NCBI GenBank assembly: GCA_963781885.1
Contig: CAWAHW010000002.1
Coordinates: 531,119-595,118, forward strand
DNA: 64,000 bases
Reading direction: 5' to 3'
From: an uncultured Spirochaetota bacterium
GTDB lineage: Bacteria > Spirochaetota > Spirochaetia > SZUA-6 > Fen-1364
Shown here one piece after another: positions 1,210-19,199 of the stretch. The notes below the pieces were generated by a model. That model saw only the letters and a list, made by a program, of their open reading frames with translations, searched no databases and had not been told where the DNA came from. The translations under genes and the position numbers were made by a program. Numbering within the stretch: position 1 is the stretch's first letter; each line of letters begins with the position of its first letter.

Positions 1210-2037
1210 ATGGGCTCGATGGAAGGCATGCGTGTCCTCGTGACAGGGGCGGGCACGGGGATCGGGAAGGGAATCGCGGAAGAGTTTGCGCACGAAGGGG
1301 CAACCGTGGTGCTCCATTATTCGCACAGCTCGGCCGGGGCAATCGCCGCGGCGCACGCCATCGTTGCCGCCGGCGGAAAGGCGGAGGCGATGCCCGCGGA
1401 CTTTTCCCGACGCGACGAGGTGCGGGGGCTTGCCGCGCGCGCGCTTTCATTCCTGGGGGGAATCGACGTCCTGGTCAACAACGCCGGGGTGTCCCTCACA
1501 TTGCCCTTCGAGCAGGTCACCGGCGAGCAGTTCGACCTGCTCTATGCCGTGAATGTCAGCGCGCCCTTTTTCCTCACGCAGGCGCTCCTTCCGCGTCTCT
1601 GCGAGTCGAAGAACGCGTCGGTCATCAACCTGAGCTCCATCCACGCCTACGAGGGCGCCCCCGAGTACGCCGTCTACGCGGGCACGCGCGGTGCCATCCT
1701 GGCTTTCACGCGGGAGCTCGCCATCGAGCTCGCACCGCTCGGCATACGGGTGAACGGCATCGCCCCGGGATCGACCAACGTGGAAAGCCATCGGAAGGTC
1801 GCGTCGAGCGCCGAGCTCGAAGCGGAGGGCCGGGGGATACCCGTCGGCAGGCTTGGAACGCCGCAGGACATGGGCAAGGTCGCCGTATTCCTCGCGTCGG
1901 AGGGAGCGCGCTTCATCGTCGGACAGACCATCGTGGTCGACGGCGGCACCATCTCGTGGATGCCGTTCGGGGAGCAGTTCCGACGCCGTGCGCCGAAAGA
2001 GTACCGCCTGGGCCAGGGCTACGTGCCGGGGATGTAG
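1210..2037 (+). CDS. SDR-family oxidoreductase (KduD/2-deoxygluconate-dehydrogenase-like)
   Basis: TGAGTGIG Rossmann motif, NNAG, Tyr-based active-site region. GGAGGAG RBS 6 nt upstream of ATG. Confidence 0.8.
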   Translation: MGSMEGMRVLVTGAGTGIGKGIAEEFAHEGATVVLHYSHSSAGAIAAAHAIVAAGGKAEAMPADFSRRDEVRGLAARALSFLGGIDVLVNNAGVSLTLPFEQVTGEQFDLLYAVNVSAPFFLTQALLPRLCESKNASVINLSSIHAYEGAPEYAVYAGTRGAILAFTRELAIELAPLGIRVNGIAPGSTNVESHRKVASSAELEAEGRGIPVGRLGTPQDMGKVAVFLASEGARFIVGQTIVVDGGTISWMPFGEQFRRRAPKEYRLGQGYVPGM

Positions 2038-2080: not shown

Positions 2081-2983
2081 CTACAACAGCTCGTTCGCCG
2101 TGAGCGCCCGCTTGATCTCGGTCGCCTGCTCGGGGCCCATGGGCTCCAGCGGCGCGAGCGCCTTGCCCGCGCCGATGCCCATGAGCGAGGCGGCGTGCTT
2201 GAAGCCCGTTACCCAGCTCGCCGGCCCGCCGACAAGCGGCGCGCGCACGGGCTGCAACTTGGCGAATAGCCGCGTCACGGCCTCCCAATCCGCCCGTGTG
2301 GCCGCATCGAAAAGCCGCACGAACAGCGCAGGGGCGATGTTGGCCGTCCCCGGCACGATGCCCGCGGCGCCTGCCTTCAGCTCTTCCACCAGCGTGACCT
2401 CGTCACCGGCAAGCACGGAAAGTCCCACATCCTTGCCGCGTTTCACGAGATCGCGGAAATAGGCGACGTCGCCCGAGCTTTCCTTGCAGTACCGTATCCA
2501 TCCGCGCCGCGCCATGTCGCAGACCATTCCCACGTCCAGCGCGACACCCGTGCTCTGGGGGATGTTGTAGGCGATCATCTCCATGTCGCCGGCCGCCTCG
2601 CGCGCCGCGGCGTAAAGACGAAGCTGCTCGGAGGCGCTCCTGGCTGCAATGTAGAAGCTTGGTGTCAGGACGAAGCCGCGGCACCCGACCTGGCGCAGCA
2701 CGCGCACCTTCTCGATGACGCGGGAGGCCGACGTCTCCATGACGCCCGTCACGAGGCTCGTTTTCGATCCGCACTCGTCGTATGCGATCTCCGCCAAGCG
2801 CTGCCATTCCGCGAACGTGAGGAGGGGTCCTTCACCCGCGGTGCCCCCGGCGAAAATCCCGCGCACACCCGCGGCGATGAGCCGGCGTATCAGGGACCGC
2901 AGCCCCTGCTCGTCCACCCGCTCCTGCGCATTGGTGGGTGTGATGATGGGAACGACGACGCCATGCAGAGACTGTTTGTCCAC
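2081..2983 (-). CDS. Dihydrodipicolinate synthase/N-acetylneuraminate lyase family aldolase
   Basis: 300-aa ORF with DHDPS-family motifs (GTTGE, YNIP, conserved Lys region). GTG start at 2983 preceded by a GGGAGG RBS. Confidence 0.75.
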   Translation of the reverse strand: MDKQSLHGVVVPIITPTNAQERVDEQGLRSLIRRLIAAGVRGIFAGGTAGEGPLLTFAEWQRLAEIAYDECGSKTSLVTGVMETSASRVIEKVRVLRQVGCRGFVLTPSFYIAARSASEQLRLYAAAREAAGDMEMIAYNIPQSTGVALDVGMVCDMARRGWIRYCKESSGDVAYFRDLVKRGKDVGLSVLAGDEVTLVEELKAGAAGIVPGTANIAPALFVRLFDAATRADWEAVTRLFAKLQPVRAPLVGGPASWVTGFKHAASLMGIGAGKALAPLEPMGPEQATEIKRALTANELL

Positions 2984-3028
2984 GATAACCTCCCTGGAGC
3001 GCCGGGCTTCAGACCGGGCGCGCCGGCA

Positions 3029-4174
3029 TCATGACGAAAGCGGGTATCGCCCCGCGTTCCTCACCTCGTCGCACATGGCAACGATATTCTGAGGCGGCAC
3101 ATCGGGCTGGATGCAGTGCACGGCCGCGGCGACATAGCCGCCCCCCGGGGCAAGATCGCCGATGCGGCGCCGGACCTCGGCGCGCACGTCAGCTTCGCTG
3201 CCGTGGGGAAGGACGGTCTGGGTATCGATGGCGCCGCAGAAGGAGAGCCGGCCGCCGAACTCCCGTTTCAGACGGGCGGTGTCGGCGAGGTCCTTTGCCG
3301 AGACCTGCACGGGGTTCAGCAGGTCGACACCGACATCGGCCAGGTCCCCGATGAGCGGATAGATGTTGCCGCAGGAATGGAAGAAGACCTTCGCGCGGGT
3401 ACCCTCGTGAATCGCCGCGAGCGTCTCCGCCTGGTGGGGCTTGACGAGCCGTCGGTATAGCGCGGGCGCCATGAATGTCGAGTCCTGCGTGCCCAGGTCA
3501 TCGCCCGTGAGTGCGATGTCGACAAAGTCTCCCACCTGACGGAAGAGCTCGCGGAGATACGGGATCATGCGGATCTTGAACTCGTGCATGAGCGCAAGGA
3601 AGAAGTCCTCGTCCGCCGCCAGATCCATCAGGCACTCGGAAAGGCCCCGCATGAGGTATGCCTGCTCGAAGAGAGTGACGCCCGTCATGAGGATGCAGGC
3701 TTTGCCGGACTGCTGGATCGCCCGGCAGCGCGCGGCCAGGCCTTCGAAACGGGACGGCGCCGACAGATCGGGCCAGGGGTAACGGGGCAGATCCTCAATG
3801 CGCGCGTTGCGCAGCGGAGGCTCGATCACCTCGAAGTAGCCGGTGCCCGGGTTGCGCGTCCAGGTGCAGCCCCAGTCGTCGACCAGCTCGTCCGGCGAGA
3901 CGTCGCGGCGAAGCGTGGATGCCGCGGGACCGGGCACGCAGGGGCGGCCGTCCGAGCCCAGGCGCTCCATCACCGCCTCGTCCATCCACGTGTACTGGAA
4001 TTGCCGCGATATCCAGCGCAGGGGACCCGGCTCGATGCCAAGGTGCCTCGCAAGACGCGGGTAGCCGGGCCCCAGGACCGTGGTGGCACCCGACGTTCCG
4101 ATGAAGAGAGGGACCCGGTCCGGCTCCTCGTGATTCAGCGCCATCGCCACGCGTTCGCGCGACGTCATGCCCAT
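3029..4174 (-). CDS. Uroporphyrinogen decarboxylase (URO-D) family protein (MtaA/CmuA-like), paralog 1
   Basis: The ORF-track frame extends to 4381, but the real start is ATG at 4174 (MGMTSRERV) with a GGAGAGGAG RBS. URO-D/MtaA-type N-terminus and C-terminal motifs. Confidence 0.75.
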   Translation of the reverse strand: MGMTSRERVAMALNHEEPDRVPLFIGTSGATTVLGPGYPRLARHLGIEPGPLRWISRQFQYTWMDEAVMERLGSDGRPCVPGPAASTLRRDVSPDELVDDWGCTWTRNPGTGYFEVIEPPLRNARIEDLPRYPWPDLSAPSRFEGLAARCRAIQQSGKACILMTGVTLFEQAYLMRGLSECLMDLAADEDFFLALMHEFKIRMIPYLRELFRQVGDFVDIALTGDDLGTQDSTFMAPALYRRLVKPHQAETLAAIHEGTRAKVFFHSCGNIYPLIGDLADVGVDLLNPVQVSAKDLADTARLKREFGGRLSFCGAIDTQTVLPHGSEADVRAEVRRRIGDLAPGGGYVAAAVHCIQPDVPPQNIVAMCDEVRNAGRYPLSS

Positions 4175-4199
4175 TTGTGTCTCCTCTCCCCGCGCCGGC

Positions 4200-5327
4200 C
4201 TAGTAGGTCCCCATGGCAAGGCCCTTGTCCACGAAGTGCCGGTAGGTGGGGTAATCGACAAGGCTCGACACGCTGTGGTCCACCTGCAGGATGTACCCGC
4301 TGCCGGCCATTGCTCCGGGAAGCTTGCGTGAAAGCTCCGCATCGACCACGGAAAGGTCATTCGTCTCCAGGGTCCGCGCATCCATGCCGCCGATCAGCGC
4401 GATCCTGTCCCCCACGTCCTTCTTGATCTTCAGCAGATCCATGCCGGCCTTCGTCTCGATCGGCTGGAGGCAGTCGATGCCCGCCTCCAGGAGGGACGGC
4501 AGCAGCGCTTCAACGAAGCCGTCGCAGTGGAGGATCACGGGAAGCCCCCGGCTGTGCGCGAAGTCGAAGAGTCTCTTGTGCGCGGGAAAAACGATCTGGC
4601 GATACATCGCGGGAGACATGAAGGGCTTGTTCTTGAACCCCAGGTCATCCCACACCCAGAGGCCATCGGGCAGGCCTTCTTTCGCGAAGAGTTGCTCAAG
4701 CAACCGGATCGTGACCGTGGCAAAGAGGTCGGCCATCTCGGTTACCCATGGCTCGTCGAGCGCCATCCCCATGAGCAGGTACTCGTGCCCGCACATGGGT
4801 GACATGAGGTCGAAGGCGCCGACGACCCCGCAGGAGAGAAAGAGCTCCTGCCGGGCGCATTTCTCCCTCATCTGCCGGTAGCGGTCGGAGCGGATGCGGC
4901 GGGAATCCAGGCTGAGATTCGTGAGGTGCGGCTTGATGTGCTCCTCCCACCCCGCCCGGTCGCGCACCGTGAAGTCAACGTGCTCGGGAGCGCCCGACCC
5001 GTTCTTCAGCCAGCGCAGGAAGGCGCCGTTTCCGTCGCGGATCAGCTTTGCCGTGTCCGTTTCCTCCACGACGGCTTGCCCGGCGTCAAGGTCGGCCACC
5101 AGCTCCAGCACATTGCCCGGCATGGGAGTGATTTCCCCGCTTGTGCGACGGACGTCCAGGCCGAAATGATCGCTCACGTCCTCAGGCGCCTTGTACCAGC
5201 CCTGAGCGCACCACGTGTCGGCCGTCTCCCGCCAGAAGACTTCGAAGAGACCCACCCTGTCCACGGGCTGATGCTTCAGGATCCTCGAGATGCGCTCCCT
5301 GCTCGTGAGGGGGGAAGCCTTTTTCAT
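4200..5327 (-). CDS. Uroporphyrinogen decarboxylase (URO-D) family protein, paralog 2
   Basis: Start MKKASPLTSRERI at 5327 (the ORF-track frame extends to 5534). ATGA start/stop overlap with the upstream gene. URO-D family conservation (HCDG, GGMD regions). Confidence 0.75.
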   Translation of the reverse strand: MKKASPLTSRERISRILKHQPVDRVGLFEVFWRETADTWCAQGWYKAPEDVSDHFGLDVRRTSGEITPMPGNVLELVADLDAGQAVVEETDTAKLIRDGNGAFLRWLKNGSGAPEHVDFTVRDRAGWEEHIKPHLTNLSLDSRRIRSDRYRQMREKCARQELFLSCGVVGAFDLMSPMCGHEYLLMGMALDEPWVTEMADLFATVTIRLLEQLFAKEGLPDGLWVWDDLGFKNKPFMSPAMYRQIVFPAHKRLFDFAHSRGLPVILHCDGFVEALLPSLLEAGIDCLQPIETKAGMDLLKIKKDVGDRIALIGGMDARTLETNDLSVVDAELSRKLPGAMAGSGYILQVDHSVSSLVDYPTYRHFVDKGLAMGTY

Positions 5328-6415
5328 GGTGTTCGATCTCCTCTTTTTCGTGTCAGGGACGGCGATGCCCCCATCATGCGCGCGGCGAGGTGCTCGATGG
5401 GTGTTCGCGGTCCCCGGAAAAATCGCACGGTGCTCACGTCGTCGTACCGGTTTCTGCCGGTGTCCCCGCCGATGGCGGGCGCGTGATACTCCAGCTCGCT
5501 GAAGCTGCCCAGGGCCGCATTGTTCACGGCGCATGCCTGCACGGCGCAGGCGGGCGGACCGGATCGCGGCGTGTCGATGTAGAGGAGACCCGGGTCCACC
5601 GCGAAATCCCGCACGATGAGATCGGCGCGCCCGCCGTTCCCGTGCAGGTAGCCCACGCGACCCGTGACCGATTCAGGGGGCAGCCCGATCTTCTTGTCTC
5701 CCTGTCCCCGCATCGCCCACTGGACGAGCGCCTGCTGCCGCCCCACGTCCTCCGCGGGGATGAGACCGAAAAAAAGGACCGGTTCGGGGCGATCTTTCAC
5801 GCCGAAGAGCATCACCCCGCCGTGGGGAAGCTGCAGGAGGTTCCAGAGCCCCACGGGGGTGCGCGGCGCGAGCTGCGTGACCTCGAGGGTGCAGCGCAGG
5901 GTGTAGCCGCAGGACAGGATCCCCTGCACCGGCAGATCGTTGCGCACGGCATCCGGGTCCATCGCTTCGACGCTTTTTGAAAGCGACAGCCCGACATCCT
6001 CGGCTGTGCGAAACGAGTGGAGGGAGAAGGAGGTGGACATGACCAGGCGTGTCGCCTCCCGGCGGCAGGTGAAGCTGCCGGGATCGAATACGCGGGGCTG
6101 GAAGTAGCCTTCCTCCCTTGGGTAGCGCGGGAGGAAGAAATCCGCTTCGGGTGCAATCCAAGTGCGGTCACCGCCGGTATTGCACCATGCGCCTGATTCG
6201 AAGAGACGGCGCGCGCTGTCCGTCCGGTCCAGCGCGGAATTGTTCCAGAGGAAGCCCTCCTCCTCGGTTCCGGGAAAGACGCCCAGCACGCGCGCCCCAT
6301 GGGGGAGCACGACGACGCGTGCGCCGTCCGGTGCACGGAGGATCTCGGCGGGCTTGCCTGCCTCGGCCAGCCGCGCGGCCAGGGCGGCGGTAGCCCCGTC
6401 AGACTTTGACGCCAT
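5324..6415 (-). CDS. Hypothetical protein (no recognisable family), translationally coupled to the URO-D paralog
   Basis: 363-aa ORF with protein-like composition. Start ATG at 6415, 13 nt after the upstream stop; its TGA overlaps the next ATG (ATGA). Confidence 0.5.
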   Translation of the reverse strand: MASKSDGATAALAARLAEAGKPAEILRAPDGARVVVLPHGARVLGVFPGTEEEGFLWNNSALDRTDSARRLFESGAWCNTGGDRTWIAPEADFFLPRYPREEGYFQPRVFDPGSFTCRREATRLVMSTSFSLHSFRTAEDVGLSLSKSVEAMDPDAVRNDLPVQGILSCGYTLRCTLEVTQLAPRTPVGLWNLLQLPHGGVMLFGVKDRPEPVLFFGLIPAEDVGRQQALVQWAMRGQGDKKIGLPPESVTGRVGYLHGNGGRADLIVRDFAVDPGLLYIDTPRSGPPACAVQACAVNNAALGSFSELEYHAPAIGGDTGRNRYDDVSTVRFFRGPRTPIEHLAARMMGASPSLTRKRGDRTP

Positions 6416-7367
6416 TCACGACGTTCGGCGGCTTGCCCCCGCGCAGCATGACGGCCACGGTCTCCGCGACGTCCGTGCGGAGCTTCAGACCCGAGGTCGG
6501 GCTGCCGGAGGCGCAGTGCGGGTTGATGAGCACGTTGTCGAGCTTCGCGAGCGGATGACCCGTCGGGATGGGCTCGGGATCCGTGACGTCCAGGGCGGCC
6601 CCCGCAAGGTGACCGCTCTGCAGCGCGGCGACAAGGTCGTCCGTCTTCACGAGTGTCCCGCGGGAGACATTGACCAGGAGCGAGCCGCGCTTCATCTTCG
6701 CGATGGACTGCGCGTTTATCATCTGCCGCGTCTCCGGCGTGCTCGGGCAATGGAGCGACACGAGGTCGCTCTGCGCGAAGAGCTCCTCCCGCGTCACGGG
6801 GATGAAGCCGTCCTTCTTGATGCGCCGCGCCTCCACGTGGGGGTCGGCCACGATGACGCGGCACTTGAACGGCGCCAGGCGGAGAGCCACCTCGCGGCCG
6901 ATGCGGCCGTAGGCAACGATGCCGACGGTCATGTCCTTCAACGCGCGCATGTCCTTGATGTCCACCGCGAGACTCCAGCTTCCCGCGCGGATGCGCATCG
7001 CGTTCTGGCTGATGCGCCGCGTCATCTCCAGGATCATCGCCAGGGCGTGATCGGCAACCTCGTTCGTGCAATAGTCCGGCACGTTGCAGACGGGTATCTT
7101 CTTCGCCGCGGCCGCGGCGAGATCGACATTGTCCACCCCGATGCCGTAGCGCACGATGACGCGGCACTTCTGCATCGCAGCGATCACCTCCGCGGTGACG
7201 GGAGCGAACTGCGTGATCACGTAGTCGGCGTCTTTCACCAGCGCAACGAGGCCCGGCTTTTCCTTGCCGGTCTTCAGCGAGGTGAACTGGCAGCCCAGCG
7301 GCTCCAGTATTCCCTTTTCGATGTCCAGGACGTCAAAACCATAATCCGTCACGGCGACGATCGGCAT
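6399..7367 (-). CDS. D-isomer-specific 2-hydroxyacid dehydrogenase (PGDH/glyoxylate reductase-like)
   Basis: 322 aa. NAD-binding GxGxxG (AYGRIGREVA), catalytic-domain motifs, C-terminal GAALDV..EP. Confidence 0.8.
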   Translation of the reverse strand: MPIVAVTDYGFDVLDIEKGILEPLGCQFTSLKTGKEKPGLVALVKDADYVITQFAPVTAEVIAAMQKCRVIVRYGIGVDNVDLAAAAAKKIPVCNVPDYCTNEVADHALAMILEMTRRISQNAMRIRAGSWSLAVDIKDMRALKDMTVGIVAYGRIGREVALRLAPFKCRVIVADPHVEARRIKKDGFIPVTREELFAQSDLVSLHCPSTPETRQMINAQSIAKMKRGSLLVNVSRGTLVKTDDLVAALQSGHLAGAALDVTDPEPIPTGHPLAKLDNVLINPHCASGSPTSGLKLRTDVAETVAVMLRGGKPPNVVNGVKV

Positions 7368-7377
7368 GTTTCTTCTC

Positions 7378-8163
7378 TCACTTTCCCACGACAGGGTTGC
7401 GCAGCACGCCGATGCCCTCGATCTCCACCTCGAAGACGTCCCCCGGCCGCAACCACGTGGGCGGCGTCTGGGCGAATGCGCATCCGGCCGGGGTGCCCGT
7501 GGAAAGGACGGAGCCCGGCAGGAGCGTCATTCCCTGGGACAGGTAGCTCACCAGGAAGGCGACGTCGAAGATGAGGTCCGCGGTGGAGGCGTCCTGCATC
7601 GTCTTTCCGTTGAGTCTCCCCTGGATGTGGAGATGCGTTGGATCGAGCTCCGTCTCGATCCAGGGACCAAGGGGACAGAAGGTATCGAACGATTTTGCCC
7701 GCGACCATTGGCCGTCCTTGTTCTGCACGTCGCGGGCGCTCACGTCGTTCGCGCAGGTGTAGCCGAAGACGTACTTCAGCGCATCCTTGCGGTCCACGTT
7801 CCGCGCCGGCTTTCCGATCACGACGGCGAGCTCGGACTCGTAGTCGATCTGGCCGGGTGCGACGTGGGGAAGGACGATGGGCGACCCGGGATCGGTGACG
7901 CAGGAGGAGGACTTCATGAAGAGCAGCGGTTCCGTCGGGGGCGCCTCTCCGCCTTCGGCCGCGTGCGCCTTGTAGTTCCTGCCGAAGCAAAGAAGATTGA
8001 CGGGGATGAGGGGCGCCAGGAGCTTCACGTCCGCCATCGGCAAGGGGCGGCCGTCCTTTTTCCAGTTGCCGAAAATGTCCCCGGCGATGGGCTGGGCCTT
8101 GTCGCCCTCCAGGATCGCGTGGACTACCGCGCCCTTGGCCGTTCGAATGCGTGAGATTTTCAT
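7378..8163 (-). CDS. Fumarylacetoacetate hydrolase (FAH) family protein
   Basis: 261 aa. FAH-fold motifs (YESELAVVIGK, GTPAG). Confidence 0.8.
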   Translation of the reverse strand: MKISRIRTAKGAVVHAILEGDKAQPIAGDIFGNWKKDGRPLPMADVKLLAPLIPVNLLCFGRNYKAHAAEGGEAPPTEPLLFMKSSSCVTDPGSPIVLPHVAPGQIDYESELAVVIGKPARNVDRKDALKYVFGYTCANDVSARDVQNKDGQWSRAKSFDTFCPLGPWIETELDPTHLHIQGRLNGKTMQDASTADLIFDVAFLVSYLSQGMTLLPGSVLSTGTPAGCAFAQTPPTWLRPGDVFEVEIEGIGVLRNPVVGK

Positions 8164-8444
8164 GCTGCCTCCGTCGTCATGACACCGGCTGAGATATTCC
8201 CCGGTACACTATTCCAACAGCCCCGAATGTCAACGGACGGCCCGCCCGCACTCTATAGAAATGTCCCTCTGGTTCAGGCAGCTCACCGCATTCCACGGTG
8301 TTGACAGCTGCTCCGCATTCGTCGACATTCGAAAGGCTCCAAACGGCCCTCGCGCGGGCCCCATGGACAAGATACGTAATCCGGTCCCGGCCGCCACGCG
8401 GCGCGGCATGCCGGGATGCGTGAGGGCAGGGAAAGGAGACCGGC

Positions 8445-8894
8445 ATGATCGCCGACACGCTTGCGAACGCGGGATTGTACAAGGGCCTCGGCGGGCGCAT
8501 CGCCCGCGCCCTGGATGTCCTGGGCAGCAAAGATTTCCGTTCCATGGAGCCGGGCAGGATCGAGGTGGATGGTTCGTCACTGTTCTACATGGTCCAGATG
8601 TACACGACGAAACCGCGGGAAAAAGGGGAGTGGGAATCGCATCCGAAATATGTCGACGTGCAGTACGTGGTGGACGGCGTCGAGCGCATCGGCTGGGCTC
8701 CCCCGTCGCGGCTGTCGGTCGTCACACCCTACGACGGGGAATCGGATGCAACACTTTATGCCGGTGACGGCGATTTCGTGCTTCTGCCGCCGGGGTCATT
8801 CATGATCCTGTGGCCGGGAGACGCGCACATGCCGGGAACGTCGGTGGACCGGCCCCTGCCGGTGCGCAAAGTCGTTGTGAAAGTGCTGCTGTAG
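8445..8894 (+). CDS. YhcH/YjgK/YiaL family protein (DUF386; NanQ/EbgC/YiaL-like)
   Basis: 149 aa; the family's length and conserved His/Asp positions. AAAGGAG RBS. Confidence 0.75.
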   Translation: MIADTLANAGLYKGLGGRIARALDVLGSKDFRSMEPGRIEVDGSSLFYMVQMYTTKPREKGEWESHPKYVDVQYVVDGVERIGWAPPSRLSVVTPYDGESDATLYAGDGDFVLLPPGSFMILWPGDAHMPGTSVDRPLPVRKVVVKVLL

Positions 8895-8907
8895 CGGCGG
8901 CTCCGGT

Positions 8908-10152
8908 TCAGGTGCCGGCCAGCCAGGAATACGGCTTCTCGATGGAGTCTTTCACACTCCGCAGGAAGCGCGCCGCCGGCGCCCCGTCGACAAGGCGGTG
9001 GTCGAATGTCAGGCTCAGCACGACCATGCGTCGTATGGCGACCGTTCCCGCATCCGCATCGGTGACGACCTGCCGGGCGACGATGCGCCCCACGCCGAGC
9101 ACGGCGCATTCCGGCAGGTTGATGATCGGTGTGAATGCATCGATGTCGTAGGCGCCGAGATTCGTGATTGTGAATGTCCCGCCGCGCAGGTCCTCTGCCG
9201 CCACGCGGCCCTCTCGGGTCGCCTCCACAAGGTGCGCGGAGACTTCAGCGATCTGTCGCAGACTCTTTCCCTGCACCGACCTGATCACGGGGACCAGGAG
9301 GCCTCGCTCCGTGTCGACCGCGAGCCCCACGTTCACCTCGGGCGGCCGCACGATCTCGTTACCCTCGAGGCGCGCATTGCACGCGGGGTGCTCCCGCAGC
9401 GCGCGGGCCGCGATGAGGATGAGCATGTCATTGTAGGTCGGCACGACGGGCGCGCCTTCCTTCTTGAACATCGCGCGCAGCCGTACCATCTCCGTGGCAT
9501 CCGCCTCCGTGGTGAGCGTCACCGCCGCGGTGGTCTGCGCGCTTGCGGCCATCCTCTGCGCGATCACCCGGCGCGGGCCGCTGATCGGCGCTGCGGCTGC
9601 GGGCACGGGGCCTGCGGCAGCCCCAACGTCCGCGCCGGCCCGCGCGGCCTGCCGCACGTCGCGTTCCACGATGCGGCCCGTCCGGCCCGAACCGCCGAGT
9701 GTCTCCCAGGCCACGCCCAACTCCCCGGCGACGCGCTTTGCGCGCGGGCTGATGGCGGGACGCCCGGTCTGTGTCGGGGCGGCGCGCGGTATTGCCGCCG
9801 CGGCGGTTGGGGCGGCCGCAGGCGCGGCAGCGGCGGGCGCGGGGACAGCGATTTCCGCCGGGGCTTCGGTGGCGGCAGGCGCGCCCGCCGGCTTCGGTTT
9901 GGCTTCACCCGGCGCGAGCAGATAGGCCAGAAGCGTGCCGACCGGCACCGCCTTTCCCTTGGGAGGGCATTCCGGGGGGATATAGAGGATGCCGCTTTCC
10001 AGAGCCTCACACTCCTGGATCGCCTTGTCGCTCTCCACCTCGAAGAGGATCTCTCCCGCCGTGACGGTGTCGCCCTCGTTTTTGCGCCAGCCGGCGAGCG
10101 CCCCCTCCTCCATGTTCCACCCCAGGCGGGGCATCACGATTTCGAATGCCAT
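8908..10152 (-). CDS. Dihydrolipoamide acyltransferase (E2) of 2-oxoacid (pyruvate/acetoin) dehydrogenase complex
   Basis: N-terminal lipoyl domain (EVESDKA), Ala/Pro linker, peripheral-subunit-binding domain, C-terminal catalytic DHRxxDG. Confidence 0.8.
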   Translation of the reverse strand: MAFEIVMPRLGWNMEEGALAGWRKNEGDTVTAGEILFEVESDKAIQECEALESGILYIPPECPPKGKAVPVGTLLAYLLAPGEAKPKPAGAPAATEAPAEIAVPAPAAAAPAAAPTAAAAIPRAAPTQTGRPAISPRAKRVAGELGVAWETLGGSGRTGRIVERDVRQAARAGADVGAAAGPVPAAAAPISGPRRVIAQRMAASAQTTAAVTLTTEADATEMVRLRAMFKKEGAPVVPTYNDMLILIAARALREHPACNARLEGNEIVRPPEVNVGLAVDTERGLLVPVIRSVQGKSLRQIAEVSAHLVEATREGRVAAEDLRGGTFTITNLGAYDIDAFTPIINLPECAVLGVGRIVARQVVTDADAGTVAIRRMVVLSLTFDHRLVDGAPAARFLRSVKDSIEKPYSWLAGT

Positions 10153-10165
10153 CCCATGCCCCCGA

Positions 10166-11148
10166 TCACTCGGCCAGCAGGTCGCGCACCGCCTTCACCA
10201 CGGTGCGTGTCTCCGGAACCACGTCCTGGAAAAGGGAGGGGCTGTACGGAGCGGGGCAGGAGAGCCCCGTGAGCCTCGCCACCGGCGCGTCAAGGTCGTC
10301 GAAACCCTTCTCCATCACCTGCGTGGCGATCTCCGCCGCCGCGCCGCACGGAGCGAAGTCCTCGTCCACCACGAGCAGCCGGCCCGTCTTTTCACGGACG
10401 TGAGGACGGTGTCGATGTCAAGCGGCGCGAGGCTGCGCGGATCGATCACTTCGATGCTGATTCCTTCCTTGGAAAGCTCCTCAGCCGCCTCGAGTGCCTT
10501 CTTCACCATGAAGGCGATCCCGACCACGGTTGCATGCGTGCCTTCCCGCGCAACCGCCGCCTTTCCGAACGGCACGAGGTGCTCGCCGTCCGGCACGGGC
10601 CCCTTCAGGTTGAGCAAATTCTTGTGCTCCAGGAAGAGGACCGGGTCGTCGCATCGGATGGACGTCTTGAGGAGCCCTTTTGCGTCGGCGGGCGTGGTCG
10701 GCATGACGACGCGAAAGCCGGGCACATGCATGAAGAAGGGGTAGTAGTTGCCCGAGTGATGCGCCGCGTTGAAGGGCGCGACGCCGACGCATCCGCGCAC
10801 GACAATCGGCATCTTCAGGCGCCCGCCGCTCATCCACTGGAGCTTCGCCATCTGGTTGAACATGTCGCCGAAGGCGTCGGTGAGAAAGTCGATGAACATG
10901 AAATCCACGATCGGCCGCGCGCCGCTTGCCGCCGCGCCGGTGCACAGGGCGGTGAAGCCGCGCTCCGAGATGGGGGTATCGCGCAGGCGCTCTTCTCCAT
11001 AGAGGGCGTGGAGGCCGACGGTCGTATTGAAGTTGCCGCCCCGCGCCCCGATGCCTTCGCCCACCACGAAGATCCGGGAGTCCCGGGCCATTTCCTCTGC
11101 AAGACCCTCGCGGGCCGCGTCGACAAAGCTCATTTCGCGCATCTGCAT
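10166..11148 (-). pseudogene. 2-oxoacid dehydrogenase E1 beta subunit, frameshifted (one nt missing in the A4/T4 run at ~10389-10392; possibly sequencing error)
   Basis: The 277-aa ORF is E1beta until ...TSVK and then reads junk. The authentic C-terminus (VVDEDFAPCGAAAEIATQVMEKGF...) is the 68-aa ORF 10166-10372 in another frame. Confidence 0.7.
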
Positions 11149-11149
11149 C

Positions 11150-12137
11150 TCATCCTTCGGCGTACACGTGACTCATGACCGATCCGGGCTCGGGCAGGGG
11201 GCTCGCCAGCGCAAAGGCAGCCGCCTCCTCCGCCATTTGCTTCACCTCGGCATCGATGGCGTCCAGCTCTTTCTTCGTGGCCACCGCGCCGGCGACGATC
11301 TTCGCCCCCAGCAGCCCGATCGGGTCACGGCTCTTCCATTCCGCGACCTCCTCCTGCGTGCGGTAGCCGGCGTCGCGCATGCCTTCAGAGTGCGCGCGCG
11401 TGCGGTAGGTCTTGCATTCGATGAGGGTCGGACCCTCTCCGGCGCGTGCGCGCCGGACCGCCTCCCCGGCCGCCTGCCAGACCGCGAGCACGTCGTTGCC
11501 GTCCACCTCGACGCCGGGAAGCCCATAGGCCGCGGCGCGCGACGCGACGCTGGTGTTCTTCGTCGCCTTTTTGTACGGCACCTCGGTGGCGTACATGTTG
11601 TTCTCGCAGACGAAGATCGGCGGGGATGTCCCACGCCGCGGCGAGATTGATGCCCTCGTGGAAGGAGCCATTGTTTGTCGCCCCGTCGCCAAAGAAGGCC
11701 ACTCCGACGCGGTCGATTTTCAGGATCTTCGCCGCATAGCCGGTGCCCGCGGCAAGGGTGATGCTGGGTCCGACGATGCCGCTGGAGCCCATGAACCCTA
11801 TTTCCGGCTTGAAGATGTGCATGCTCCCGCCGCGGCCGCCCGAGCAGCCGGTCGCCCTGCCGAGCACCTCGGCAAAAAGCTCGCGCGGCGGCACGCCCTT
11901 GGCCAGCGCGTGCCCGTGGCCCCGGTGCGTGCTGAATACGCAGTCATCGCTTCGCAGGTGCGCGCAGACCCCGGTGGCGACCGCCTCCTCGCCGATGTAG
12001 GTGTGCACGCCGCCGTACAGCTTGCCCGCCGCATACATCTTCACGAGCTGCTCTTCACAGCGACGAAGGACGAGCATCGTGCGGTACAGGGCGAGCATCT
12101 GTTCCTTGGTGAGAGCGGGTATCTTTTTCTTGGCCAT
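11150..12137 (-). pseudogene. 2-oxoacid dehydrogenase E1 alpha subunit (TPP-binding), frameshifted in the G4/C4 run at ~11625-11628
   Basis: N-terminal part (MAKKKIPALTKEQ...GDGATNNGSFHEGINLAAAWDIP) lies in frame 11385-12449. C-terminal part (PPIFVCENNMYA...) is ORF 11150-11692. The two join with a 1-nt shift. Confidence 0.7.
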
Positions 12138-12172
12138 TCCGGCGTTCCTCCCGGGCTTCGTGCCCGCAGATT

Positions 12173-12991
12173 TCAGTTGATCTTCGTGACGCCGGCCTGG
12201 CCGCCGGCGTTCATGGCGGTGTTGCCGCCGTCGAAGGGGAAGAGGACGCCCGTGATCCAGGCGGATGCGTCCGACGCGAGCAGCAGCGCGATGCCCTTCA
12301 CGTCCTCCGGCTGCCCGAATCTGCCTATGGGGATGCCCTCCTGCATACGCTTTTCGATCTCCGGATTCGCCGCCCATAAGCCCTGGAGGCCGGCGTTGGT
12401 GACCTGCGCGGGAAGGATCGCGTTCACGCGGACGCCGCGCCCGGCCCATTCGGTGCTCAGCTCCCGGGTCATCTCCGCGACGGCGCCCATGCCGACGCTG
12501 TAGGCGAAGTTGCCGCGGCCCAGCGCGGTGAGGCTCGCGATGGAGCCCATCATGATGATGCTGCCCTTGCCCTGTCTCAGCATCCGGTGACCCGCCTCCT
12601 GCGCGCAGCAGAAGCGTGCAACGGTGAGACCCATGACGACCTGCTGGTAGTGCTCAAGGTCGATCTCCTCCGCCGAGCAGCGGTAGCCCGGGCCGACGAG
12701 CGCGGCGCAGATGTCGATGCGGCCGTATTCCTTGTCCAGTGCCGCGTAGACCGCCTTGATGTCCTCCACCTTTGTCATGTCGCCGGGCACGACGAGCACC
12801 TTGCGCCCGAGTTTTTTCGCATAGTCGGCAGTCGCCGCAATGCCCGCCACGTTGCTGTGCCGGGGAAGGAGCAGGTCCGCCCCCGCCTCTGCAAACGCCA
12901 TCGCCATTGCCTGGCCCATGCCCGATGCGGCCCCGGTGACGAGGGCGACGCGGCCGTGTAAGTCAAACATGTCCAGTACCGTGCGCGCCAT
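12173..12991 (-). CDS. SDR-family oxidoreductase
   Basis: Start MARTVLDMFDLHGRVALVTGAASGMG at 12991, internal to the ORF-track frame. SDR motifs. Confidence 0.75.
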   Translation of the reverse strand: MARTVLDMFDLHGRVALVTGAASGMGQAMAMAFAEAGADLLLPRHSNVAGIAATADYAKKLGRKVLVVPGDMTKVEDIKAVYAALDKEYGRIDICAALVGPGYRCSAEEIDLEHYQQVVMGLTVARFCCAQEAGHRMLRQGKGSIIMMGSIASLTALGRGNFAYSVGMGAVAEMTRELSTEWAGRGVRVNAILPAQVTNAGLQGLWAANPEIEKRMQEGIPIGRFGQPEDVKGIALLLASDASAWITGVLFPFDGGNTAMNAGGQAGVTKIN

Positions 12992-13109
12992 GGTGTACCT
13001 CCGCGTATTGTATGCTCGGTGACGGAACAATGCTAAGGTAGCCAAAGCGATTTGCCCACGCAAGGGACAATTCTAAAGAGTCGGCCAGGAAATCCCGGAG
13101 GAGGCCTCC

Positions 13110-14183
13110 ATGACTTCGCGCGAAAGGGTCCTTTCCGCGCTCCATCACGTCCAGCCGGACGTCACACCCTGCGACTATTTCTCCACGCCGGAGATACAGC
13201 GCGGTCTCCTGGATCGCCTGCGTGTCTCGTCGGAGGAGGCGCTGCTGGACCGGCTGGGGGTGGACATCCGCTACGTCGCGCCGCCCTACACGGGACCGCG
13301 GCTTCCCTCCTACGATGACGGCTCGGAGACGGACATATGGGGGATCCGCAAGAAGCCGATGCCGAACGACTACGGCGATTATGCGGAGCCCGTGGGACTT
13401 CCCTATGCGGGCTGGACCACGGTGGAGGAGGCCGCGGTTTTTCCCTGGCCGAGCCCGGACTGGTACGACTATTCTGCAATGCCCGCCCTCTGCGCGCGCT
13501 ATCCCCATCGTGCCGTGGCGGTCGGCGGCTTCGGGATACAGGATTTCATCAACGGCACCGCATTTGGGCGCGGCGTGGAGCAGGTGCTTCTCGATATCGC
13601 CCTCGATGACCCGGTGTACCTCTTCATCGTGGAGAAAAGGCACCGTTTCGCCCTCCAGCACATCGACAGGATACTCACGGCGGCAAAGGGAAGGATCGAC
13701 CTCGTCCTCTGCGGCGATGATTTCGGCAGTCAGCGCGGCACGCTCATCTCCCCGACGTCCTTCGACACCCTGTTCGCGCCGCGCAAGAAGGAGTTCTTCG
13801 ACATGGTCCATTCCCACGGCGCGAAGGTCACGCATCACTGCTGCGGATCCAGCCGCGCGTTCTTCCCCCGGTTCATTGCGCTGGGCATGGACAGCATCCA
13901 GACGATACAGCCGCGCGCCGAAGGCATGAACCCCTACACGCTCAAGGCGGAGTTCGGCGGCCGCATCTGCCTGCACGGGGCGGTGGATGTCCAGGGATGG
14001 CTGCAGCACACGAAGCCCGACATGATCCGAAGCGAGGTGCACCGGCTCATGGACGAGGTGGGCAGCGGCGGCGGGTACATCCTCGCTCCCAGCCACAACC
14101 TGCAGCCGGACACGCCCATCGAAAACGTGCTGGCCGTCTATTCCGCCGTGGCCGAGCGCCGGGGCGACCCGAAGCTCGCGTAG
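13110..14183 (+). CDS. Uroporphyrinogen decarboxylase (URO-D) family protein, paralog 3
   Basis: 357 aa. Same family as 3029-4174 and 4200-5327 (MTSRERVLSALHH..., HCCG, GGGYILAPSHN). Confidence 0.75.
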   Translation: MTSRERVLSALHHVQPDVTPCDYFSTPEIQRGLLDRLRVSSEEALLDRLGVDIRYVAPPYTGPRLPSYDDGSETDIWGIRKKPMPNDYGDYAEPVGLPYAGWTTVEEAAVFPWPSPDWYDYSAMPALCARYPHRAVAVGGFGIQDFINGTAFGRGVEQVLLDIALDDPVYLFIVEKRHRFALQHIDRILTAAKGRIDLVLCGDDFGSQRGTLISPTSFDTLFAPRKKEFFDMVHSHGAKVTHHCCGSSRAFFPRFIALGMDSIQTIQPRAEGMNPYTLKAEFGGRICLHGAVDVQGWLQHTKPDMIRSEVHRLMDEVGSGGGYILAPSHNLQPDTPIENVLAVYSAVAERRGDPKLA

Positions 14184-14242
14184 GAAAGCGGGCGCGCGCG
14201 AAGGTCGCCGAGAGGACATTTCAAAAGAGTTGCGCGGGCACC

Positions 14243-14255
14243 GTCAATGATTGAC
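14243..14255. promoter_or_regulatory. 13-bp palindrome GTCAATgATTGAC, candidate GntR/FadR-type operator overlapping a TTGACA -35-like hexamer
   Basis: Near-perfect inverted repeat of the GT-N-AC type, ~45 nt upstream of the Ldh_2 gene and near the GntR regulator. Confidence 0.35.
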
Positions 14256-14297
14256 AACCGGCACGGGAGACTCGACAGTTGGCCCAGGAGAACCACG

Positions 14298-15377
14298 ATG
14301 AGTGCTGGCCCGCGGAGGATTCGCGTCCGGGATCTCGAAACGATCTGCCGGGACGCCATGAGGAAAGCCGGTCTGTCGGATCAGGATGCCGCGATCACGA
14401 CCGATGTGCTGGTGACCACCGACACGTGGGGTGTTCACACCCACGGCACGAAACAGCTGCGGGCGCTCCTGAAGAACTTCCGCGACGGCAAGATGGACCT
14501 TGCCGCATCGGCGGAGCTGGTTGGCCAGGGCACGTCGTGGGCCCTGTATGACGGGCACCGGTCCATGCCGATGGTGACCTCGAAGCGCGCCATGGGCACG
14601 GCCATCGAGAAGGCCCGCGCCACGGGTATTGCATGGGTCGGCGTGCGCAACAGCGGGCATTTCGGCGCGGCCGGATACTATGCGAACATGGCAGCGCAGG
14701 AGGGCATGCTCGGGCTCAGCATGTGCAATGTCGACCCGGGTGTTGCCGTGCCGGGTTCCCGCGGACCCGTCCTGGGGACGAACCCGCTGGCGTATGCGGT
14801 TCCGGCAGGAAAAGAGAAGCCGGTCTTTCTCGACATTGCCACCAGCGTCGTTGCGGCAGGGAAGGTGTATGCCGCGCAGGCTGCCGGGAAACCCATCCCC
14901 GAGGGCTGGCTCATCGACAAGGACGGGCTTCCGACCACCGACCCGGCGGGCTACCCCCTCGTCGGCGCGCTCATGCCCATGGCAGGCCACAAGGGATACG
15001 GCATCGCGCTCATGATCGAGGTCCTGACGGGAGTGCTGTGCGGGGGGGCTGTCCGGGACAACATCGTGAGCTGGGTGAATGGCCCCGCGCCGGTGAACCA
15101 GTCCCTCGCGTTCCTTGCCATCGACGTTTCGATGGGCATGCCGCGGGAGGATTTCGGCGGCCGCATGGATGCGTTGATTCGCGGCATCCGCGGCGCGCCG
15201 CGGGCGGTCAACGCGGACCGCATCTACCTGCCCGGTGAAAAGGAATGGGACAACCGGGAGAGGGCGCTCCGTGACGGCATCCTCCTGCCGGCCGATGTCG
15301 TGGCAAGCCTCGACGGCCTGGCGCAGGATTTTTCCCTCTCCACCAGCCGTTTTTTCAGCGTCGTTGACACCGCGTGA
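14298..15377 (+). CDS. Malate/L-lactate dehydrogenase family (Ldh_2) oxidoreductase (YiaK/2,3-diketo-L-gulonate reductase-like)
   Basis: Start ATG 14298 with an AGGAG RBS. Ldh_2-family conservation (HGTKQL, GHFGAAG, MAGHKGYG). Confidence 0.75.
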   Translation: MSAGPRRIRVRDLETICRDAMRKAGLSDQDAAITTDVLVTTDTWGVHTHGTKQLRALLKNFRDGKMDLAASAELVGQGTSWALYDGHRSMPMVTSKRAMGTAIEKARATGIAWVGVRNSGHFGAAGYYANMAAQEGMLGLSMCNVDPGVAVPGSRGPVLGTNPLAYAVPAGKEKPVFLDIATSVVAAGKVYAAQAAGKPIPEGWLIDKDGLPTTDPAGYPLVGALMPMAGHKGYGIALMIEVLTGVLCGGAVRDNIVSWVNGPAPVNQSLAFLAIDVSMGMPREDFGGRMDALIRGIRGAPRAVNADRIYLPGEKEWDNRERALRDGILLPADVVASLDGLAQDFSLSTSRFFSVVDTA

Positions 15378-15390: not shown

Positions 15391-16135
15391 TTGAATGGCG
15401 GGAGGGCGGCCATCAGTACGTCCGTGAAACCTCATTACCGCACCGCGACACTCACGCCTGTCCCTCGCAGCTCCCTCGCGCTGGAAGTGGCAAAGAAATT
15501 GCGGCGCGAGATCCTCACCGGTCACATCAAGCCCGGCGAGCGCATCCTCGAGCAGGAAATATCCGAGGTGATGCAGACCAGCCGCGGCCCGGTGCGCGAT
15601 GCGCTGATACGGCTGGAGCACGAGGGGCTGGTGGTGCGGGAGCCGAATCGGAGCGCCGTCGTCGCGAGCATGACCGTGGACGACGTGGAGGAGGTCTGCA
15701 GCCTGCGTCAGTCCCTGGAGGTGCTCGCGCTGCGCTACTCCATCGACCGTGCCCAGGAGGACGATCTCCAGCGGCTCCACGCGGTCATCGGCCTTTTTGA
15801 TGAGTGCCTCAAGGACAGCTTCACCCTTGAGCGCGCGGTGGACTCTGGACCTGCGCTTCCACGAGGAGTTCGTGCGCTCCGCGCGGCATGACCGCGTCCT
15901 TTCCATGTGGCAGAGCATCAAGCCCCAGATCTGGTTCCTGATCTTTTCGCGCAACGCATTCGCCCTGGAAAACTTCCGCGAAGCATCGCCTTCCCATGCG
16001 GAGCTCGTGGATTCGATCGAGCGCCAGGACTACGAGACGGCGAAGAACAATCTCTCCCGGCACCTGCAGATCGACTACGCGGCTCTCATCAACATCTACC
16101 AGAAGATACACGAGCCCGACGGGACGCCGCGGTGA
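15391..16135 (+). pseudogene. GntR-family (FCD/FadR-type) transcriptional regulator, frameshifted at ~15844 (extra T)
   Basis: wHTH N-terminus (LALEVAKKLRREILTGHIKPGERI...) is in one frame. The FCD domain (LDLRFHEEFVRSARH...) is in the +1 frame. Start codon uncertain (TTG 15391 or GTG 15424). Confidence 0.6.
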
Positions 16136-16926: not shown

Positions 16927-17355
16927 CTACAGCGCCTTCAGCGCCTCTGCGTTCAGGGTCGCGATGCCGTTCTTCTCCAGTATCTGCAGGGCGCGCTCGC
17001 GGTCGTCGATGCGGCAGATGACGATGGCATTCTCCCGCGTCTTCTCGACGTACGCGTACATGTATTCCACGTTCACGTTGTCCTGGTCGAGCACCTCCAG
17101 GATGCGGGCAAGCCCGCCGGGCTTGTCTTCCACTTCCACCGCGATCACCTCCGTGACCTGCGCGACGAATGCGCGGGTCTTCAGCACGGCGAGGCAGCGG
17201 TCGGGGTTGTCGACGATGATGCGCAGGACGCCGAAATCCGCCGTGTCGGCCAGGGACAGGGCGCGGATGTTTATCTTTTCATGGGACAGCGTGCGGGTGA
17301 CCTCGGCGAGCCTCCCCTTGCTGTTCTCCAGGAAGACGGAAATCTGCTTCACGGG
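16927..17355 (-). CDS. ACT-domain protein (partner of PaaK-like ligase)
   Basis: 143-aa tandem-ACT protein (MPVKQISVFLENSKGRLAEV...). It is the real gene inside the 591-aa GC-artifact ORF. Confidence 0.7.
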   Translation of the reverse strand, partial: PVKQISVFLENSKGRLAEVTRTLSHEKINIRALSLADTADFGVLRIIVDNPDRCLAVLKTRAFVAQVTEVIAVEVEDKPGGLARILEVLDQDNVNVEYMYAYVEKTRENAIVICRIDDRERALQILEKNGIATLNAEALKAL

Positions 17356-19198: not shown

Positions 19199-19199
19199 C

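Follow-up and report, generated by a model that had tools for sequence, protein, structure and literature searches.

Three URO-D-fold paralogs in a conserved sugar-acid locus may be corrinoid-dependent demethylases of methylated sugars

A stretch of 64,000 nucleotides from an uncultured Spirochaetota bacterium (contig CAWAHW010000002.1, positions 531,119 to 595,118; here named the window) carries three genes for URO-D-fold proteins, UROD_A, UROD_B and UROD_C, amid genes of sugar-acid and 2-oxoacid metabolism, as a first-pass annotation made from the sequence alone had noticed and as Pfam and NCBIfam scans agree (Table 1). Based on comparative genomics, on which the case wholly rests, we propose that the three paralogs take part in a corrinoid-dependent demethylation whose substrates are O-methylated sugars or sugar acids: each would be a methyltransferase specific for its substrate, and the genes of the corrinoid module would lie elsewhere in the genome. 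To this proposal we give an even chance. The paralogs probably work like, and descend from, methyltransferases of the MtaA and O-demethylase type, which would make this a known enzyme system with a probably new class of substrate, and a testable lead on how anaerobes handle methylated sugars.

Family placement and corrinoid links of the paralogs

All three proteins score above the gathering threshold of PF01208, and their pairwise identity is 27-29% (UROD_B 27% and UROD_C 29% to UROD_A), with 128 bits for UROD_A against UROD_C and 85 bits for UROD_A against UROD_B. By profile score, none is placed in a curated equivalog family. The HemE model TIGR01464 (cut-off 303) did not match UROD_A or UROD_C and gave UROD_B 18.7 bits; the MtaA/CmuA/MtbA-type models (TIGR01463, NF040654, NF041608), which score highest for the three paralogs among the NCBIfam models, reached 37-46 bits against cut-offs of 235-600. 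That the paralogs are neither HemE nor members of the MtaA/CmuA equivalogs is supported by these profiles, the latter part at 37-43 bits against a cut-off of 235. The family comprises 1,046 clusters at 50% identity when collected at E <= 1e-30 and 4,832 at E <= 1e-10, nearly all of its members coming from uncultured PVC-group bacteria, Spirochaetota, Chloroflexota and Acidobacteriota.

An AlphaFold2 (AF2) model of UROD_A (predicted local distance difference test, pLDDT, 91) has the URO-D TIM barrel, into which a beta-rich segment is inserted at about residues 54-118. Its closest solved structure, by sequence and by fold, is the methyltransferase MtaA (4ay7, E 5.7e-15), followed by HemE structures, and matches to the MtaA and HemE structures range from E 1e-15 to 1e-9 at 13-17% identity. 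A metal motif is retained in the three paralogs, reading H266-S-C268...H353-C354 in UROD_A, H267-C-D269...H351 in UROD_B and H243-C-C245...H329 in UROD_C. His266 and His353 (UROD_A numbering) do not vary in any of the three ortholog groups; two positions on from His266, Cys stands in 90% of group A and 100% of group C and Asp in 89% of group B, a pattern that fits a metal ligand. The invariant His353 is at the third ligand position and has an adjacent Cys in group A only. Fourteen residues are identical across the three groups and at least 90% conserved within each, among them D19, D75, R77, W101, W134, D219, D226, H266, K303, D317 and H353. We therefore predict that the paralogs are metal-site proteins of the URO-D methyltransferase branch, the metal being probably zinc, and the failed HemE model together with the retained metal motif argues that they are not HemE-like decarboxylases.

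With the MtaA/MtbA/MtsA methylcobamide:coenzyme M (CoM) methyltransferases, the paralogs share the TIM-barrel fold, in groups A and C an H-x-C motif that aligns with the zinc-motif H-x-C of MtaA, a similar N-terminal D-R-x-P motif and the existence of homologs linked or fused to corrinoid proteins. They differ from MtaA in that UROD_A is only 17% identical to it, with a template modelling (TM) score of 0.63-0.70, in that the equivalog cut-offs are missed, and in that UROD_A carries the extra beta-rich insertion. The third ligand is Cys in MtaA instead of His, and group B has Asp for the motif Cys. The hosts of the paralogs, moreover, are bacterial polysaccharide degraders without a CoM context, in which the genes lie in sugar-acid operons. 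HemE has the same Pfam family and fold and the His of the GHG position is conserved, but at the aligned position HemE lacks the metal motif, its identity to the paralogs lies within the 13-17% given above, and no haem gene context is present at the locus.

One corrinoid link is a fusion: among the representatives of the family's clusters, a 648-aa protein (P0438) gives a full-length match to UROD_A at 38% identity (E 1.4e-68), nearer to UROD_A than UROD_B or UROD_C are, and carries fused B12-binding_2 and B12-binding domains with the DxHxxG motif present. The motifs HSCG, NPVQVSA and AAAVH are common to P0438 and UROD_A; the contig of P0438 is short and its context uninformative. We also scanned 88 UROD loci (within 10 kb) and the window by tblastn with the B12 domain, and a corrinoid protein was found in three of the loci. 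In a Planctomycetaceae locus (L022, UROD_A ortholog at 62% identity) the order is URODB > URODA > corrinoid protein > MTHFR+DUF5981 > Pterin_bind, which on our analysis is the canonical layout of a demethylase passing methyl groups to tetrahydrofolate. In an Anaerolineales locus (L055, UROD_A at 56%), a tightly spaced same-strand sugar operon ends in a corrinoid protein, in the order URODA > D-lyxose isomerase > DHDPS > FGGY > URO-D > aldose-epimerase-like > 2-HADH (2-hydroxyacid dehydrogenase) > corrinoid protein. The third is a locus of Desulfosarcina widdelii (L068, 44%), where the UROD_A homolog lies amid two MttB, corrinoid protein and Pterin_bind genes. The D. widdelii locus (NZ_AP021875.1) also has a tRNA-Sec gene and a match to Rfam PYLIS_3, the mttB pyrrolysine insertion sequence, at 3289-3382 and 8022-8122; the PYLIS_3 match is inside the first MttB gene, and the methyl-transfer cluster also holds serine-dehydratase-type genes.

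A reverse metagenome scan with a corrinoid-protein alignment gave 80 loci, about 20 of them with a nearby URO-D gene, usually directly upstream. One of these loci (L132) combines a URO-D gene with a corrinoid protein, a RACo activator, an MtaA-like URO-D and a homocysteine-type methyltransferase. The corrinoid-linked URO-D genes score 120-186 bits against UROD_A, UROD_B or UROD_C, like the paralogs among themselves. In another locus (L092), a corrinoid protein and MeTr module 74-80% identical to that of the Planctomycetaceae locus stands without a URO-D gene within 10 kb, and lone modules of this type indicate that the corrinoid module can sit apart from the URO-D genes. We rooted a neighbor-joining (NJ) tree on the HemE of E. 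coli. In it, clade A groups with the gene of D. widdelii, next to the fused P0438, clade C is sister to three corrinoid-linked genes (L095, L097, L137) and clade B to a fourth (L110), with HemE as a distant outgroup to the paralogs.

The first-pass annotation had argued from the lack of a corrinoid gene, among other things, to a novel decarboxylation or methyl transfer. The lack itself stands: in the 64-kb window, Pfam scans of open reading frames (ORFs) with high GC3 (GC at third codon positions) found no B12-binding, RACo, pterin-methyltransferase or haem gene, and two corrinoid-protein queries gave no tblastn match. It does not show a non-corrinoid function, given the Planctomycetaceae and Anaerolineales loci, the P0438 fusion and the bracketing of the paralogs in the tree. 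The annotation had also named a co-regulated corrinoid protein and activator encoded elsewhere as a finding that would tell against a novel chemistry; a corrinoid protein is indeed present at the two orthologous loci, but no RACo was found near the UROD loci.

The corrinoid O-demethylases of acetogens and Desulfitobacterium, which consist of a methyltransferase I (MT I), a corrinoid protein, a methyltransferase II (MT II) and an activating enzyme, likewise include multiple URO-D-family methyltransferase paralogs per genome, and the gene order of the Planctomycetaceae locus matches their logic of methyl transfer to tetrahydrofolate. They differ in that their substrates are aryl methyl ethers with a good phenolate leaving group, whereas here the gene context points to carbohydrates, and in that the corrinoid protein and activator lie usually outside the URO-D cluster here.

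A carbohydrate neighbourhood conserved across phyla

The UROD_A alignment was scanned against one genome per GTDB species, yielding 79 loci; the UROD_A orthologs are 60-91% identical across phyla. The closest homolog is in a fen Spirochaetaceae metagenome-assembled genome (MAG) at 91% identity; other Spirochaetota have 71-75%, and further loci are from Planctomycetota, Verrucomicrobiota, Lentisphaerae, Kiritimatiellae, Chloroflexota and Acidobacteriota. The sugar-acid locus with URO-D genes is conserved in at least six bacterial phyla. Nearly all loci are from MAGs, the sole isolate being D. widdelii with its 44% homolog. The ortholog cluster of UROD_B counts 29 ORFs, of which 27 score best against UROD_B, at a mean identity of 67%, and its members often lie directly upstream of UROD_A. 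Orthologs of UROD_C are 65-90% identical, include one from the isolate Salinispira pacifica, and neighbor GH28/rhamnogalacturonase-type, beta-helix, GFO/IDH/MocA and ROK genes.

Neighbors of UROD_A were counted in 81 loci by clustering the ORFs within 10 kb, removing shadow ORFs and annotating the cluster representatives. Ldh_2 was the most frequent (38 of the 81 loci), followed by SDR (37), the KDPG aldolase Eda (29), KdgK (28), UROD_B and 2-HADH (27 each), FAH (23), a GH36-like hydrolase of about 690 aa (20), DHDPS (15), MBL (14), a UxaE-like epimerase and E2 (13 each), an FSA/TAL-like aldolase (12), GntR/FCD (two clusters, 12 and 9), fused E1 (9) and DUF6786 (8). The same neighbors thus recur in loci of many phyla, and the carbohydrate association of the URO-D genes noticed in the window is conserved, far beyond chance. 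Some Planctomycetes have a long operon in the order GntR > KdgK > ADH > 2HADH > Ldh2 > GH36 > URODB > URODA > SDR > Eda > Eda > KdgK > DUF6786 > MBL > SDR > FAH, and URODB > URODA > Eda > KdgK recurs as a core order. Pfam-annotated contexts also hold RhaT-family transporters, GH2, CBM9 and GFO/IDH/MocA proteins, and a sugar locus may carry up to five URO-D paralogs (L009, L050). No haem genes were seen among the conserved UROD_A neighbors, nor was any classical sugar-acid dehydratase or uronate isomerase (enolase superfamily, IlvD/EDD, UxuA, UxaA, UxaC, KduI) found among these neighbors or in nine fully Pfam-annotated contexts. In the literature searched, we found nothing on URO-D proteins in sugar, polysaccharide-utilisation, rhamnose or pectin loci. 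Whatever the paralogs do, an operon of as many as about 16 genes is conserved here and is the mark of a so far undescribed pathway of carbohydrate catabolism in several phyla.

Two further arrangements were observed in these loci. In a Thermoguttaceae MAG (L001/L083, 3807-11140), the order GntR > URO-D > 964-aa CBM9 protein > GH31/GH36-like hydrolase > UROD_A ortholog hints at a plant-type (xylan-like) glycan as the source of the sugar on which the URO-D pair acts. A triad of the UxaE-like epimerase (about 584 aa, weak PF16257), the FSA/TAL-like aldolase (about 225 aa) and an SDR, in that order, recurs in UROD_A loci, among them L006, L033, L045, L047, L049, L050, L057 and L058, and is not in the window.

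In the window, UROD_B is preceded by a gene for a 363-aa protein to which, judging by a stop/start ATGA overlap, it is translationally coupled. This protein had been described as being of no recognisable family, but its homologs (42-54% identity) carry PF20583/DUF6786 and one of them is named DUF6786; the protein itself scores 18.9 bits on PF20583 against a gathering score of 27. Its AF2 model (pLDDT 92) has a galactose-mutarotase-like beta-sandwich, matched by Foldseek to galactose mutarotases at E of about 1e-6 with a low TM score of about 0.4. By homology and model, the protein is probably a member of the DUF6786 family with a mutarotase-like fold; nothing on DUF6786 was found in the literature searched.

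Two other labels of the first-pass annotation did not survive the NCBIfam models. The YhcH/YiaL-family gene was confirmed, at 107 bits on TIGR00022 against 45.5. The Ldh_2 protein, called YiaK-like, reached 126 bits on NF009750 against 316 and does better with the models for sulfolactate, ureidoglycolate and malate dehydrogenases, all under cut-off, and the MBL protein, called UlaG-like, had 52 bits on the UlaG model NF008688 against 306. On these two scores the YiaK/UlaG/ascorbate (2,3-diketo-L-gulonate) reading of the locus was rejected. Inositol or methyl-inositol (pinitol) catabolism was rejected as well, the expected Pfam families of IolB (cupin), IolD (TPP enzyme) and IolE (AP_endonuc_2) not being met in the window or among the conserved neighbors.

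The non-phosphorylative routes for deoxy-sugars and pentoses use a 2-keto-3-deoxy-acid 4-dehydrogenase and an FAH-family hydrolase (PMC6336799, PMC11199699). The enzyme families of these routes and of the semi-phosphorylative KdgK/Eda route match the SDR, FAH, MBL, DHDPS and KdgK genes of the locus, with Eda in relatives; but no gene of the locus reaches an equivalog cut-off for them, the clusters are without a classical dehydratase, and the published routes are without a URO-D protein.

Proposed demethylation route and competing explanations

Polysaccharides of plants, algae and microbes carry methyl ethers and methyl esters, such as 4-O-methyl-glucuronate in xylan, methyl-esterified pectin and O-methyl forms of fucose, rhamnose, xylose and galactose. 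As the URO-D genes are conservedly embedded among glycosidase, mutarotase-like and sugar-acid genes, we propose that the methyl donor of the paralogs is a carbohydrate, the candidates for which we take to be 4-O-methyl-glucuronate, methyl-esterified galacturonate and O-methyl-deoxyhexoses. UROD_A, UROD_B and UROD_C would act as methyl donor:corrinoid methyltransferases of the MT I type. For each of them, the methyl group would come from a sugar or sugar acid that is O-methylated, or possibly from a methyl ester, and its acceptor would be the Co(I) of a small corrinoid protein. In the methyl ether or ester, the C-O bond would be polarised by the metal site, much as zinc acts on methanol in MtaB. 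Next, a pterin-binding methyltransferase would pass the methyl group on to tetrahydrofolate, and oxidation by MTHFR would bring it into the one-carbon (C1) pool. In the window organism, as in most genomes with these genes, the corrinoid protein, the methyl-tetrahydrofolate methyltransferase and the activator would be encoded elsewhere and be common to several paralogs, the presence of several paralogs per locus reflecting different methyl-sugar specificities; O-demethylating anaerobes carry multiple MT I isoenzymes.

The demethylated sugar would enter the oxidative and 2-keto-3-deoxy-acid routes of the neighboring genes. In other genomes the GH36-like hydrolase may free the sugar, and the mutarotase-like DUF6786 protein, the SDR dehydrogenases and the MBL protein, a candidate lactonase, would act in the route. 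Cleavage could be by KdgK with Eda, by the DHDPS-family aldolase, or by an SDR with the FAH-family hydrolase, and 2-HADH and Ldh_2 would handle hydroxy-acid products.

In the literature searched, the only carbohydrate demethylase is an O2-dependent P450 (PMC6292453), the 6-O-methyl-D-galactose demethylase of marine Bacteroidota (PMC6292453, PMC9400963), and no account of an anaerobic removal of sugar methyl groups was found. Its physiological role is the one proposed here, the removal of a methyl ether for entry of the sugar into central catabolism, but its fold is unrelated and its reaction oxidative and O2-dependent, yielding formaldehyde, as opposed to the O2-independent transfer to Co(I) and tetrahydrofolate that we propose. 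If the proposal is true, a corrinoid-dependent sugar demethylase would fill this gap in anaerobes, a function would be assigned to a large unannotated family (the 1,046 clusters), and methyl groups of polysaccharides would pass to tetrahydrofolate and not to free methanol, which bears on the methanol supply of methylotrophic methanogens in peat, soils and sediments.

Several observations weigh against this proposal. A corrinoid protein is found neither in the window nor in 85 of the 88 UROD loci, and about one co-location would be expected by chance on a rough estimate, against the three found, one of which is a 44% homolog. No RACo homolog was detected in the window or UROD loci by tblastn with the RACo of locus L132, and no cobalamin riboswitch (Rfam) in the window or eight representative loci. 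The loci of the reverse scan are generic methyl-transfer loci, with no sugar genes and no close UROD_A orthologs, and the 80 loci showed no dedicated "sugar" subfamily of corrinoid proteins. The NJ tree carries no support values, and the literature searched holds no precedent for corrinoid-dependent cleavage of alkyl (sugar) methyl ethers. Since the co-location count is near chance, we place the weight on the gene arrangements, the fusion and the phylogenetic bracket.

The main rival, which we consider unlikely but worth serious attention, is that the paralogs descend from corrinoid methyltransferases, have lost the use of corrinoid, and catalyse a new reaction on sugar acids in which the metal site serves as a Lewis acid. 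This reaction could be the dehydration of an aldonate to a 2-keto-3-deoxy acid, the isomerisation of a (keto)uronate, or the elimination of methanol from an O-methyl uronate or aldonate, and the product would feed KdgK/Eda, the DHDPS aldolase or the FAH hydrolase. Somewhat more doubtful is the particular claim that a corrinoid-free, metal-dependent dehydratase, isomerase or methanol-lyase supplies, as new URO-D-fold chemistry, the 2-keto-3-deoxy-acid-forming step otherwise absent in the clusters. In favor of the rival, the window and most of the 88 loci have no corrinoid gene nearby, the core order URODB > URODA > Eda > KdgK resembles dehydratase-aldolase-kinase operons of the dgo type, the conserved neighbors include no classical dehydratase or uronate isomerase family, the Asp of group B in place of Cys makes a harder His/Asp/His site, and the conserved Trp, Arg, Lys and Asp residues would suit the binding of a sugar acid. 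The argument from the missing dehydratase is weak, however, since the gene for a dehydratase, like that for the corrinoid protein, could lie elsewhere. A corrinoid-free function also leaves unexplained the corrinoid-protein fusion of the 38% homolog P0438, the methyltransferase-to-MeTr order of the Planctomycetaceae locus and the corrinoid protein in the Anaerolineales operon, and a dehydratase or isomerase of this fold is not among the published activities of the URO-D superfamily, which are decarboxylation and alkyl transfers only (PMC10418091). A dehydratase or isomerase was at first the favored reading and was demoted because of the fusion and of these two arrangements; were the paralogs corrinoid-independent after all, they would represent a new reaction type for the fold.

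It is quite improbable, in our judgement, that the paralogs are ordinary corrinoid methyltransferases merely sharing a sugar-acid operon, with a non-carbohydrate donor or acceptor, be it methoxylated aromatics, methylated amines or thiols, or a thiol methylated by an MtaA-like MT II. Their relatives do occur in classical methyl-transfer loci with MttB, S-methyl_trans and RACo. MtaA-type MT II genes of methanogens are typically unlinked to corrinoid protein genes, and thiol-alkylating zinc enzymes typically have a metal site with Cys. Such a function sits poorly with the tight translational coupling among carbohydrate genes (the ATGA overlap with the mutarotase-like DUF6786 gene), with the synteny with GH36-like, Eda, KdgK, Ldh_2 and FAH genes kept across phyla, and with the GH28, beta-helix and ROK genes that adjoin UROD_C orthologs.

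Very improbable is a cofactor-free, HemE-like decarboxylation of a sugar-acid-derived carboxylate, for example a beta-keto acid formed by Ldh_2 or 2-HADH: the fold, the conservation of an Asp and an Arg (D75, R77) in all three groups, the rank of Ldh_2 as the most frequent neighbor and the YiaK > kinase > decarboxylase logic known from E. coli would suit it, but HemE is a distant outgroup with a failed model, the H-x-C motif kept by the paralogs is not in HemE, Ldh_2 is not YiaK-like, and the downstream enzymes act on C6 2-keto-3-deoxy acids and not on pentoses. Of the earlier suggestion of a novel decarboxylation or methyl transfer on a sugar-acid-derived substrate, the methyl transfer accordingly gains from the placement in the methyltransferase branch, and the decarboxylation finds no positive support.

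Gene layout and other features of the window

The GC content of the window is about 66% and shadow ORFs are numerous; genes were called by GC3 filtering with Pfam and NCBIfam scans of its ORFs (Table 1). The locus reaches the left window edge, so that further genes may lie upstream of it, possibly including Eda, the partner of KdgK in relatives, which is not in the window; the rest of the window holds unrelated housekeeping, efflux and signalling genes. The minus-strand operon had been described as having ATGA overlaps and gaps of 25 nt or less. The ATGA overlap was found at the DUF6786/UROD_B junction only, and the limit on the gaps does not hold, the 2-HADH and DUF6786 genes overlapping by 17 nt and the remaining gaps being 10, 25 and, between UROD_A and the DHDPS gene, 45 nt.

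Table 1. Genes of the sugar-acid locus in the window
Feature	Position	Strand	Basis
kdgK-like PfkB-family 2-keto-3-deoxy-sugar-acid kinase	105-1133	+	Pfam PfkB 107 bits
SDR oxidoreductase 1	1210-2037	+	adh_short_C2 196 bits
DHDPS/NanA-family aldolase, last gene of minus-strand operon	2081-2983	-	PF00701 140 bits
UROD_A, URO-D fold	3029-4174	-	PF01208 79.8 bits (cut-off 23.9)
UROD_B, URO-D fold	4200-5327	-	PF01208 70.7 bits
DUF6786 protein, 363 aa	5324-6415	-	homologs carry PF20583
D-isomer-specific 2-hydroxyacid dehydrogenase (2-HADH)	6399-7367	-	PF02826 199 bits, PF00389
FAH-family hydrolase	7378-8163	-	PF01557 239 bits
YhcH/YjgK/YiaL (DUF386) family protein	8445-8894	+	TIGR00022 107 bits (cut-off 45.5)
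Lipoyl-bearing E2 acyltransferase, PDH-like 2-oxoacid dehydrogenase complex	8908-10152	-	PF00198, PF00364, PF02817
E1 alpha/beta component, four frame segments	10169-12107	-	tblastn, Pfam E1_dh
SDR oxidoreductase 2 (gluconate-5-dehydrogenase/KduD-like), divergent from UROD_C	12173-13063	-	adh_short_C2 154 bits
UROD_C, URO-D fold	13110-14183	+	PF01208 68.7 bits
Ldh_2-family 2-hydroxyacid dehydrogenase	14247-15377	+	PF02615 370 bits
GntR/FCD regulator, frameshifted	15451-16102	+	GntR domain, truncated FCD domain
MBL-fold hydrolase, candidate lactonase (listed ORF start 15907)	16147-16905	+	Lactamase_B_2, Lactamase_B_3

Among the NCBIfam models, the kdgK-like protein matches the kinase half of a KDPG aldolase/kinase fusion model at 499 bits, and the DHDPS-family aldolase and E2 stay under every equivalog cut-off. 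The FAH hydrolase scores 186.8 bits on TIGR02303 (HpaG-C-term; cut-off 276.4) and 183.7 bits on NF053535 (2,4-didehydro-3-deoxy-L-rhamnonate hydrolase; cut-off 500), and the models nearest to SDR 2, gluconate 5-dehydrogenase and KduD, are both under cut-off. The product of the YhcH/YjgK/YiaL gene is 70% identical to a DUF386 protein of a related long-read MAG locus (L002) by tblastn.

Two genes of the locus are broken in frame. The E1 segments lie in frames -3, -1, -2 and -1 by tblastn. Their junctions are near 11625, 11160 and 10390, two of them at short homopolymers (CCCC, AAAA), the Pfam E1_dh domain is split between two ORFs, and Transketolase_C is truncated; in other loci E1 is a single fused alpha-beta protein of about 688 aa. 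In the GntR/FCD gene, the tblastn match of orthologs passes from frame 2 into frame 3 at about 15843 and FCD continues in the other frame. Heavy fragmentation of the related locus L002 makes assembly indels and true pseudogenes equally likely. Orthologs of the MBL protein match 16147-16884 by tblastn, and the true start of this gene is probably near 16147 rather than at 15907.

Further along the window, two PaaK-like acyl-CoA ligase genes (AMP-binding and AMP-binding_C_2) lie at 16927-20561 on the minus strand, each with an ACT-domain pair, which is fused to the ligase in ORF 16927-18702 and is a separate 142-aa gene (18770-19198) in the other. Anaerobe-type C1/folate machinery is present about 30 kb from the URO-D locus, with no link shown between the two: a MetV-like (DUF5981-type) segment directly upstream of an MTHFR (MetF) gene at 46517-47813 (+), and a 5-formyl-tetrahydrofolate cyclo-ligase at 36962-37495 (-). 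A multihaem class III cytochrome c family protein is encoded at 44155-45387 (+) with MFS transporter genes on either side, one of them truncated (43476-44096), and the AT skew is unusual (0.232) in the 42-44 kb bin. The stretch 49417-60426 holds two ABC efflux systems of the MacB type, with HlyD and OEP components, next to a histidine kinase/response regulator pair; the OEP ORF (56327-58243, -) overlaps the kinase ORF (57891-59660, +), so that one of the two starts is probably wrong. The last segment of the window, 62001-64000, has a GC content of 0.598, against about 0.65-0.69 elsewhere.

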